Shown here in pieces: positions 10,108 through 44,737 of a stretch of DNA of 64,000 nucleotides. The number at the start of each line of letters is the position of its first letter. Position 1 is the stretch's first letter. A program made the translations under genes and the position numbers. The stretch covers positions 67,766,001 to 67,830,000 of the forward strand of contig NC_042999.1 of NCBI RefSeq assembly GCF_006345805.1, given 5' to 3'. The notes under the pieces were generated by a model. That model was given only the letters and a program-made list of their open reading frames with translations, did not search any database and was not told the origin of the DNA. This DNA comes from Octopus sinensis. Its lineage: Eukaryota.

Positions 10108-10615
10108 CATCATCATCATCATCATCGTTTAACATCCGCTTTCCATGTTAGCATGGGTTGGACGATTTTGACTGAGGGCTGGCGAACCAGATGGCTGCAC
10201 CAGGCTCCAATTTTGATTTGGTGGAGTTTCTACAGCTGGATGCCCTTCCTAACGCTAACCCCTCCGAGAGTGTAGTGGGTGCTTTTTACGTGCCACCAGC
10301 ACGGGGGCCAGTCGGACGGTACTGGCAATGACCTCGCTCGAATCTTTTTACACATGCCACCAGCACAGGTGCCAGTAAGGCGACGTTGGTAACGATCACG
10401 CTCGGATGGTGCTCTTGGCACCCTACTAGCATGGGCACAATTGCCAGTAAGGCGATGCTAGTATCGATCACACTCGAATGGTGCCTTTTATATGCCACTG
10501 GCACGGAAGCCGGTTAGCCGCTCTGTCAACGATCATGCTTGCATGGTGCTCTTTGCACCCCGCTAGTATAGATGCCAGTCATCAAATGTGATTTTGATTT
10601 TGATTTCACTTGCCT
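10108..10615 (-). mobile_element. Family D retroposon (multi-module subfamily) inserted in a family A SINE tail
   Basis: Colinear with 25808-26352; family A sequence lies at 9990-10105 and resumes at about 10775-10857. Confidence 0.8.
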
Positions 10616-10785
10616 CCAGGCTTAAAAAAGTACAAAGCTTAAAAAAAATGTACTGGGCTTTAAAAATGGTATAAAAAAGTACTGGGATTAAAAGAAGTAC
10701 CAGATTTTTAAAAGTACCAGGTTTTTAAAAAAAATACTGGGCTTAAAAAAGAAGTACCAGGATTTAAAAAAAAGTACTGGGCTTG
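10616..10785 (+). repeat. Degenerate tandem repeat of an AAAAAGTACTGGGCTT-like unit
   Basis: Roughly 8-9 imperfect copies of the AAGTACTAGGCTT motif of the family A tail. Confidence 0.7.
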
Positions 10786-10915
10786 ATTTGTTCACCTAAA
10801 ATTCTTCATGGCAATGCCCCAGTACGGCCACAATCTAATGACTGAAACAAGTAAAAGGTTCATTATTTACTTTATTTACAGTTGACGGATATTTGTCCTC
10901 ATCTTGTTTGTTGCT

Positions 10916-10961
10916 AATACAATATTTCGGCTGACATACTCTCCAGCCTTCTTCAGGTGTC
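10916..10961 (-). ncRNA. Minimal type I hammerhead ribozyme core
   Basis: Minus strand GACAC-CTGAAGA-A-GGCTG(loop)CAGCC-GAAA-TATT-GTATT: intact CUGANGA and GAAA boxes, 5-bp stem II, palindromic stem III. Confidence 0.6.
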
Positions 10962-11243
10962 TTGGGGAAATTTCGAACCTGGGTTCTCATTCCTAAGGTA
11001 TTTTTCAATGTTATTATTATTATCGAACTTGGAATCTTGGGGTTAGTAGCCCACACTCTTAACCGCCATGCCATATGGCTGTGGGTGTAGTGGTTAAGAG
11101 AGTGGGCTACTAACCCCAAGATTCCAAGTTCAATTTCAAGCAATGACCTCAACAACGACGACGACGCTGCTGCCGCCGCCGCCACCACCTCAACCATCAA
11201 AAAATACCTTAGGGATGAGAACCCAGGTTTGAAATTTCCCCAA

Positions 11244-11290
11244 GACACCTGATGAAGGCTGGAGGGTATATCAGCCAAAAACAATGTGTT
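11244..11290 (+). ncRNA. Minimal hammerhead ribozyme core, mutated
   Basis: GACAC-CTGATGA-A-GGCTG(loop)CAGCC-AAAAACAAT-GTGTT; GAAA box mutated to AAAA. Confidence 0.5.
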
Positions 11291-11578
11291 AACAACAAAC
11301 AAGATGAGGACAAATATCCATCTAATGTAAATAATGTACCTAATTCCTCATCTCTTAAATATAGAACTGTAAGTAAAAGGTTGTTCTTTATACTAGAGGC
11401 ACAAGGTCTTAAATTTTGGCGGGAAGGAGCTCGTTAATTACACTGACCCACCTCCCCATACTTGACTGGTGCTTATTTCATCTACTCTGAAAAGATGAAA
11501 GGTAAAGTTCACCTTGGCATTGTTATATGCAATGTTTTGAGTTTTCTTTTCTTATTTCTTCAGTTCATACAAAAAATC

Positions 11579-44019: not shown

Positions 44020-44447
44020 ATCTTTTATCTTTTTCTTTTACTTGTTTCAGTTGTTAGGTTGGCCAAGGCCATGCTGGGGCACTGCCCTGAAGAAATTTTA
44101 GTCCAACAAATTGACCCCCACAACTTATTTTATTTGTCTAAGCTTGATACTTATTCTATTAGTCTTCTTTTGATGAACTGCTAAGTTATGGGTGCATAAA
44201 CACACTAACACTGGTTGCCAAGCAGTGGTGCTGGAACAAACACAAACATACATGCACTCACACATACACACACACATATATATATATGTGTATACGATGG
44301 GCTTCTTTCAGTTTCCATCAAACAAATCCACTTATAAGGCTTTGGTTGGCCTGAAGCTATAGTAGAAGACACTCACTCAAGATACCACATAGTGAGACTG
44401 AACTTGGAACCATGTGGTTGGAAAGCAAACATGTACCACACAGCCCA
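44020..44447 (-). mobile_element. Family A SINE
   Basis: Reverse complement of family consensus. Confidence 0.8.
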
Positions 44448-44737
44448 TAGGTTTTTTTTTATGGTGGTGGTGGTGGTGATGGCGGTAATGATATTAGTTA
44501 AGATGATAGTATTGATGATGATGGTGGTGGTGGTACATTTCACTTTGCCTTGGTAACTCCAAAAAGAGAGCCTTGATGTGGTCACTCAATATGACTGAAA
44601 TAGTATCCAAATTCCTATCAAATTACAACTGCCTTAAAAAGAGAAAGGCACACAAGCAAATGCATTCTGTTGTTTAACTAAAGCTGGTACTCCAGCATGG
44701 CCACAGTCAGATGACTGAAACAATTAAGAGAAGAAAA

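Follow-up and report, generated by a model that had tools for sequence, protein, structure and literature searches.

A 510-bp insert in the 64,000-nt stretch of Octopus sinensis DNA analysed here (the window) is read as two short, decayed end-repeats of a Penelope-like element (PLE), lying head-to-head within one target-site duplication (TSD), and the A/B-box segment that these repeats carry is likely the element's own Pol III promoter; for this reading as a whole we see a somewhat better than even case. The identity of the arms stands on much firmer ground, and we are highly confident that each of them is the end-repeat (pLTR) of an autonomous PLE with reverse transcriptase (RT) and GIY-YIG domains, not a SINE. 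A preliminary description had treated the same insert as a candidate new retroelement, namely a head-to-head dimer of tRNA-headed SINEs with Penelope-type hammerhead ribozymes in their tails. Except for the tRNA-derived head, all features named in that description are known PLE behaviour.

The insert and its parent element

The 510-bp insert is real, being flanked by identical 12-mers (Table 1), and its inverted arms match over 86 nt (91%), 66 nt (85%) and 43 nt (95%). The head motifs, the trinucleotide spacer and the hammerhead motifs were found where the preliminary description had placed them, and the additional 3′ piece of the right arm is present with a length of 26 nt, against the about 30 nt noted before. 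The palindrome centre formerly put at about 11073 was found to be wrong, since the arms meet at a 2-nt overlap further downstream; the 10-nt palindrome near 11073 lies entirely inside the left arm. Both heads are damaged: a 25-nt deletion at the 3′ end of the left head removes the 3′ part of its B box, and the first A box base is missing from the right arm. The window copy has no ORF beyond its pLTR part, and the tail of its right arm falls between two inferred reverse-transcription start sites.

Table 1. Features of the insert in the window and layout of the parent element. Numbers without a sign are window positions; numbers with a plus sign are pLTR coordinates, in which the base right after the stop codon of the parent ORF is +1.
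Feature	Position	Strand	Basis or remark
Left TSD, 12 bp	10849..10860	+	identical to right 12-mer
Insert, 510 bp	10861..11370
Left (inverted) arm, pLTR +25..+273, without tail	10861..11085	-	alignment to family majority
Minimal type I hammerhead, left copy	10916..10961	-	family alignment
ATG opening the PLE frame within the pLTR, left copy	10988..10990	-	frame not continued here
Short (TAA)n spacer, left arm	11010..11021	-
tRNA-derived head, left copy	11022..11085	-	motif and alignment evidence
Truncated B box, left head	11022..11030	-
Anticodon-like loop, left head	11043..11049	-
Decayed A box, left head	11063..11073	-
Head-to-head junction, 2-nt microhomology overlap	11084..11085	.	alignment to family majority
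Right (direct) arm, pLTR +38..+299, with tail	11084..11370	+	alignment to family majority
tRNA-derived head, right copy	11084..11148	+	motif and alignment evidence
A box, right head	11084..11093	+
Anticodon-like loop, right head	11107..11113	+
Decayed B box, right head	11126..11136	+
Trinucleotide spacer, right arm	11149..11194	+	drift from (TAA)n to GC-richer triplets
ATG opening the PLE frame within the pLTR, right copy	11215..11217	+
Minimal type I hammerhead, right copy	11244..11290	+	family alignment
PLE tail (+274..+299), next ORF piece	11345..11370	+	L161 and L045 continue into ORF
Right TSD, 12 bp	11371..11382	+	identical to left 12-mer
Parent layout: palindrome	+23..+34
Parent layout: tRNA-like head	+30..+103
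Parent layout: (TAA)n	after the head
Parent layout: start codon	+145
Parent layout: minimal hammerhead	+174..+219
Parent layout: 3′ end points	about +273 and +299

The insertion target was the 3′ end of another abundant repeat (window 10816-10860), a 45-nt stretch with 19 other matches within the window. Directly upstream of the insert lies a degenerate 20-nt A-rich tandem repeat (10616-10790), and GC-richer repeats of 64-72 nt occupy 10283-10571, also just upstream. A weak match of the right-arm spacer region to 44441-44485 (78% over 45 nt) is probably only the trinucleotide run.

With the right arm as query, 2444 first-look candidates were obtained in its own genome, and one of the first 30 arm matches (L004) placed the arm directly 3′ of a truncated RT and endonuclease ORF. 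The 35-nt 3′ end had 1840 exact genome matches, compared with 0 for the reversed control, from which the tailed copies are estimated at ~16,000 genome-wide, given a per-base identity of ~94%. Next, 30 loci were selected by RT protein alone, 23 of which retain the ORF end and 7 break off inside the ORF. The head was found ~20 nt past the ORF stop in 22 of the 23 (21 of 22 when the query locus is left out), and the exception, L052, retains the A-box part of the head followed by a deletion. In the RT-selected copies the head is followed by (TAA)n, the start of the ORF, a minimal hammerhead and the tail, and each arm of the insert corresponds to this pLTR of an autonomous RT and GIY-YIG element.

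The RT domain was recognized by Pfam (RVT_1, E 3.6e-11). The ORF C-terminus is collinear with the Pfam GIY-YIG domain of the homolog P0064 (42% identity over 548 aa); the endonuclease region itself gave no direct Pfam GIY-YIG match, its single-sequence fold reached a pLDDT of 45 and was set aside, and the 551-aa ORF of L036 had neither a PDB sequence match nor a Pfam match. Inspection of the translated linker between RT and endonuclease revealed no Zn-finger-like motif. As the absent Zn-finger linker is given as the character that separates Penelope/Poseidon from Neptune/Nematis (PMC8557442), the translated sequence points to the Penelope/Poseidon group. The element is ~2.65 kb long (a 2654-nt unit), and in the nearly full-length L161 the ORF is immediately preceded by 90 nt from the 3′ end of a pLTR and followed by another pLTR, which is the partial tandem PLE feature of a pLTR piece ahead of a full ORF. 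In L161 and L045 the tail leads straight on into the ORF and is thereby identified as an early part of it. Furthermore, the reading frame starts at the ATG at +145, upstream of the hammerhead, and the ribozyme motif is therefore coding. In the distant homologs P0003 and P0120 the hammerhead motif is read in frame as an N-terminal peptide, and, judged by these sequences, coding overlap of the hammerhead seems widespread among PLEs. The family ORF majority sequence contains one apparent frameshift, which falls in an A-run where the coverage is no more than 4-6 copies. Ahead of the main ATG there is also an upstream frame of two codons, which consists of an ATG at pLTR +36, a single further codon and a stop and overlaps the A box; the right window arm is without the +36 position of this ATG.

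Hammerhead motifs and head-to-head insertions

The family majority sequence has a CUGAUGA core, one extra base, a stem II of 5-6 bp, GAAA, a loopless palindromic stem III (ACGU), U17 and a 5-bp stem I. These features match those published for minimal hammerhead ribozymes (min-HHRs), as the preliminary description had proposed for the motif with loopless palindromic stem III. Among 106 gap-free copies the core is kept in 56 and the full fold in 13. Covariation of stem II was not visible within the family, the copies of which decay; in other PLEs the stem II sequence varies, with at least 4 pairs kept in 21 of 25, and stem III is palindromic in 23 of 25. In the window, the left hammerhead has an intact core and a stem III that is palindromic after two CpG-type changes, with one mismatch in stem I, and the right one carries mutations in the conserved GAAA (its G lost) and in the palindromic stem III and is predicted to be inactive. 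Decay of both copies, already remarked upon in the preliminary description, is borne out by these changes. Rfam returned only chance matches, neither tRNA nor hammerhead, for the insert in the window and for two copies of good quality. More divergent minimal-hammerhead motifs with a poorly paired stem II occur at L198/L225-L229, L199 and L215; L198 has a box-like segment upstream of its hammerhead and few relatives.

Because the two window hammerheads lie on opposite strands, one transcript of the locus would hold one sense and one antisense copy. The predicted fold of the insert is a single long hairpin (-293 kcal/mol) and not a hammerhead dimer, and an intramolecular dimer at this locus was rejected because of the opposite strands. 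The short copies of the family cover both sides of the predicted cleavage site, from which we infer that they came from uncleaved RNA; the term "ribozyme-processed" is therefore not retained for them.

The inverted arrangement recurs throughout the family. In a tail-selected sample (100 copies in genome order, 3 duplicates dropped, n=97), 65 copies have an adjacent inverted arm. Among 100 two-armed copies pooled from three samples, exactly one tail was found in 97, the short ends peak at +273 and the long ends at +299, and TSDs, mostly of 11-15 bp with a mode of 13, were found in 74 and none in 26. These counts agree with the recurrent palindromic insertions with TSDs that the preliminary description expected. 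The "dimer" is an ordinary two-primed inverted PLE insertion and not a dimeric SINE. For PLEs, inverted copies and a one-sided tail have been described (PMC8557442), a 2014 paper reports hammerheads from truncated PLEs that are paired on opposite strands at distances of 100-700 bp (PMC4209133), and in the anole element PAc both strands are nicked and extended, two internal RT starts define the tail, and uncleaved RNA is used as template (PMC11167929). The near-strict use of one start site of each kind by the two arms is an observation from this octopus family.

Two other origins of the arrangement were rejected: a MITE, as the ends are not symmetric, the TSD has 11-15 bp and the arms are PLE 3′ ends; and L1-type twin priming, as the arms overlap in sequence instead of being complementary pieces. 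Fold-back copies of 7-30 nt occur at the arm 5′ ends of L166, L167, L171, L172, L175, L177, L180, L184 and L187 (near 1490-1500), and look as if run-off cDNA had self-primed at the palindrome before the template switch. The near-identical insertions L078, L079, L081 and L082, with identical junctions on contig C1, are probably a segmental duplication and were counted once.

The preliminary description had gone further and proposed a Penelope-mobilised SINE/retrozyme hybrid. Its link to a PLE stood the comparison with the RT-selected loci; its distinct non-autonomous element did not, the head being inside the 3′ repeat of the autonomous one. An independent tRNA-SINE/retrozyme with its own masters, mobilised by the PLE and processed by the hammerhead, would fit the fact that short copies start at the head and far outnumber long ones. 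Transcription of solo pLTRs in which both boxes survive could make these secondary masters, and Schistosoma has SINE-like hammerhead elements with Pol III promoters (PMC6765202). Short and ORF-linked copies, however, do not differ in majority base at any of the positions compared (36 ORF-linked and 140 unlinked heads; 23 and 119 tails), and only 2 of about 220 positions reach P<0.01. Moreover, 8 of the 97 tail-selected copies match the ORF for 6-16 nt beyond +299, so that at least some templates were pLTR-ORF junction RNA. Together with the place of the head in the autonomous element, the coverage of the cleavage site and the lack of tandem arrays, these results make an independent element very improbable. 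The short copies appear to have no diagnostic sequence of their own.

The tRNA-derived head, the 5′ ends and a probable promoter

The 74-nt head was compared with 27 tRNA sequences of 6 amino-acid types (Ser, Leu and Tyr not among them) and scored 64 against the genome's tRNA-Arg(TCT), while the maximum in 200 dinucleotide shuffles was 49. It also contains the best A+B box pair in the whole unit (22.7 vs 10.0); the A-box weight matrix is best at +22 and not at the visible box at +37, so this score leans on the B box. ARAGORN detected no tRNA in the window and none in the 30 best head loci (30/30). Since neither ARAGORN nor Rfam recognizes them, the head and the ribozyme were identified by their motifs and by alignment. 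On this evidence the pLTR head appears to derive from a tRNA and to resemble the host tRNA-Arg, and the A and B boxes of the preliminary description are upheld. The co-occurrence of head and tail holds as well: of 30 loci selected by the head, 29 have the tail downstream of it; the exception, L191, consists of head and spacer only.

Arm 5′ ends form a wall just before this head. Of 88 arms that reach +50, 75 stop inside +10..+50, where the break rate is 3.6 per 100 nt compared with 0.17-0.46 elsewhere, a rate ~14x background. Resolved to single bases, the ends of 70 of 82 arms fall at +23..+48 and those of 0 at +3..+22; the other 12 arms continue into the ORF, 3 of them with an internal deletion. 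In the head-selected sample, which is biased to that length because its query began at +25, 23 of 30 copies start at +23..+27, 5 read through, one begins at +34 and one (L176) at +14. Transcription by tRNA-type promoters starts at a similar spacing before the A box, at a pyrimidine-purine step. The wall lies 13 nt ahead of the A box (+37), at such a step, and we are fairly confident that it marks the RNA start.

A structural origin of the pile-up was weighed against this, in which RT stalls at a hairpin over +10..+50 or the cDNA self-primes at the palindrome at +23..+34, and the head is no promoter. The region is predicted to form a hairpin of -13.4 kcal/mol, many junctions are short inverted snap-backs at the palindrome, and the breaks are scattered over +23..+48. 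A stall would be expected at the 3′ foot of the hairpin and would not produce a sharp boundary within the 5′ arm; 12 stops at +23..+27 lack any fold-back partner; un-inverted copies pile up at the wall also (7 of the 12 that reach the head); and box retention in two families would be left unexplained. We thus consider a purely structural pile-up distinctly unlikely, and RNA or DNA structure may add to the stops at +10..+50 around an RNA start.

The second of these families, the older sister family B, was found through its divergent hammerhead (loci L241-L270 and L381-L392), and the pieces of its ORF that were seen have 50-81% identity to the first family (A). Its parts follow in the same order, from the ORF end over a palindrome, an A-box-like and B-box segment and an in-frame ATG to a minimal hammerhead and a tail, and it has inverted arms. 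The tRNA-like segment lies at the same place with a score of 53 (shuffle P 0.01), and in both families the B box is better preserved than any other portion of the head and the cloverleaf is lost. Of 22 family B arms, 17 stop from the palindrome inward, 4 read through and 1 stops further upstream, about 24 nt before its palindrome. The alignment of families A and B did not clearly show a compensatory change in the palindrome, and none is claimed.

A search of the own genome for an unrelated PLE family to serve as TTTT control led back to the family itself, and controls were taken from PLEs of metagenome loci (80 fetched, some of them near-duplicates), with 40 open ORFs of at least 450 aa used for counting TTTT and 32 mappable 3′ regions. 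None of these 32 regions, which come from other organisms, scored above 46 for a tRNA-like segment. TTTT is absent from the sense strand of the 2654-nt unit, in ORF and UTR alike. By comparison, the 40 control ORFs contain 384 TTTT against 349 expected, with zero in 1 of 40, and 28 of the 32 control 3′ regions have at least one. The closest control, L275, has an ORF without TTTT, a T-rich 3′ UTR and no tRNA-like head. Against sequence-matched nulls, 0 TTTT were observed and 2.8 expected (P 0.028, synonymous shuffle); under Markov nulls P was 0.076 (order-1) and 0.25 (order-2). The absence of TTTT is compatible with Pol III passage through the whole element, and the nulls speak only modestly against chance.

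For short RNAs, we lean moderately towards a Pol III promoter in the head. That Pol III also makes the whole 2.65-kb coding RNA, from a captured tRNA promoter and along a coding strand purged of TTTT, is an extension that we hold to be less likely than not. If this extension were true, every truncated copy keeping the repeat would be a SINE-like source, and the arrangement would be old enough to be common to the two sister families. The same PLE and the same RNA start could also go with an internal Pol II promoter, the tRNA piece being the remnant of a captured SINE or tRNA with a role as initiator, enhancer or TFIIIC-binding insulator. Capping eases the translation of a protein-coding RNA, and the absence of TTTT is weak against the Markov nulls. 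In addition, the characterised promoter of Drosophila virilis Penelope, which speaks against the Pol III reading, is a TATA-less, LINE-like internal promoter in the pLTR with Inr/DPE (PMC2377424). A Pol II promoter is nevertheless judged unlikely, given the pyrimidine-purine step 13 nt before the A box with its tRNA-type spacing, a B box that is best kept in both families though the cloverleaf is lost, and an ORF and UTR without TTTT, unlike the controls. One raw RNA-seq run examined at L004 had similar depth on both strands without start or end pile-ups, and its pLTR enrichment was below that of a DNA-like run; this pattern fits read-through of scattered copies and is silent on the promoter.

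Under the Pol III reading, we propose that the RNA would start at about +24 and that the protein of the element would nick both strands of an AT-rich target ~13 nt apart. Each nick would prime one cDNA, with synthesis beginning at the +273 site for one of the two and at the +299 site for the other. For PAc, two internal RT starts, both-strand priming and an uncleaved template have been described in vitro (PMC11167929). The template would be either the 5′ pLTR-ORF junction of the long transcript or a solo pLTR transcript, with the hammerhead predicted to be uncleaved in the templates of short copies. RT would run off the RNA 5′ end after at most about 275 nt, and the two cDNAs would be joined by microhomology or by snap-back at the palindrome. 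SINE-like short copies would in this way arise as a by-product, without a separate SINE. With a Pol II promoter, or an idle one, the locus would be ordinary PLE debris.

Relation to known systems

A PLE whose pLTR contains a tRNA-derived segment did not turn up in our literature search; the family may already be listed in Dfam, Repbase or SINEBase, or in the repeat library or supplements of PMC13282606. Octopus repeat surveys give, in their accounts of repeat classes, Penelope and tRNA-SINE classes without such detail (PMC13282606, PMC8967140).

Among autonomous elements, EN+ PLEs of the Penelope/Poseidon clade come closest, and PAc of Anolis carolinensis in particular is alike in several respects as it has been described. 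It has a single ORF of RT and C-terminal GIY-YIG, and the hammerhead of its pLTR overlaps the ORF start (PMC11167929, PMC8557442); two RT starts in a stem-loop early in the ORF define its tail (PMC11167929); and its insertions have an inverted 5′-truncated copy at AT-rich targets that start with ATT (PMC11167929, PMC8557442). The octopus pLTR differs by its tRNA-derived A/B-box segment and (TAA)n, with most copies stopping at the front of the former. In the PAc experiments as reported, the start sites showed no strand difference (PMC11167929), whereas the octopus arms nearly always use different ones. The estimated ~16,000 tailed copies also allow the two-start-site model of PLE insertion to be examined in vivo, with one cDNA per nick and one tail per insertion. 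With the published min-HHRs the octopus motif shares the CUGANGA core, the extra base between positions 9 and 10.1, G10.1-C11.1, the palindromic loopless stem III and the 5-bp stem I (PMC4209133). It differs by U at position 17 and by the tRNA-like head, which does not figure in that paper's description of the motifs (PMC4209133).

Short elements offer a different likeness. Schistosoma Sm-alpha/Sj-alpha and non-LTR retrozymes combine a Pol III-type promoter with a type I hammerhead in a short unit, and are described as tandem repeats whose canonical hammerheads release monomers or circles (PMC6765202, PMC7229834); the octopus copies have a minimal hammerhead and are dispersed, single or head-to-head with TSDs, as pieces of an autonomous PLE. 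Similarly, tRNA-derived SINEs (SINE2) have an A/B-box head, about 275 nt and a high copy number, but their head is absent from the partner element and they have a consensus of their own, whereas the octopus partner PLE carries the head and the short copies have no separate consensus.

For the tRNA-type promoter piece, the nearest precedents in the literature as seen here are non-autonomous, namely Helenus/Cassandra (PMC10886601) and the hammerhead SINEs of Schistosoma (PMC6765202). The TRIMp3 elements (Cassandra, Helenus and Ajax; Kojima 2024) have a small-RNA-derived, presumed Pol III promoter in the terminal repeat, a segment that probably came from a SINE insertion (PMC10886601). They are described as non-autonomous LTR elements of 0.3-1.3 kb (PMC10886601), whereas the PLE that holds the octopus segment is protein-coding and 2.65 kb long. 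Documented cases of Pol III promoters in mobile elements concern non-coding passengers such as SINEs and Cassandra/Helenus/Ajax. A protein-coding PLE with a Pol III promoter in its pLTR would, if true, blur the divide between LINEs and SINEs, pose the problem of translating an uncapped Pol III RNA, and give a PLE a route to shed SINE-like copies without a separate parasite.
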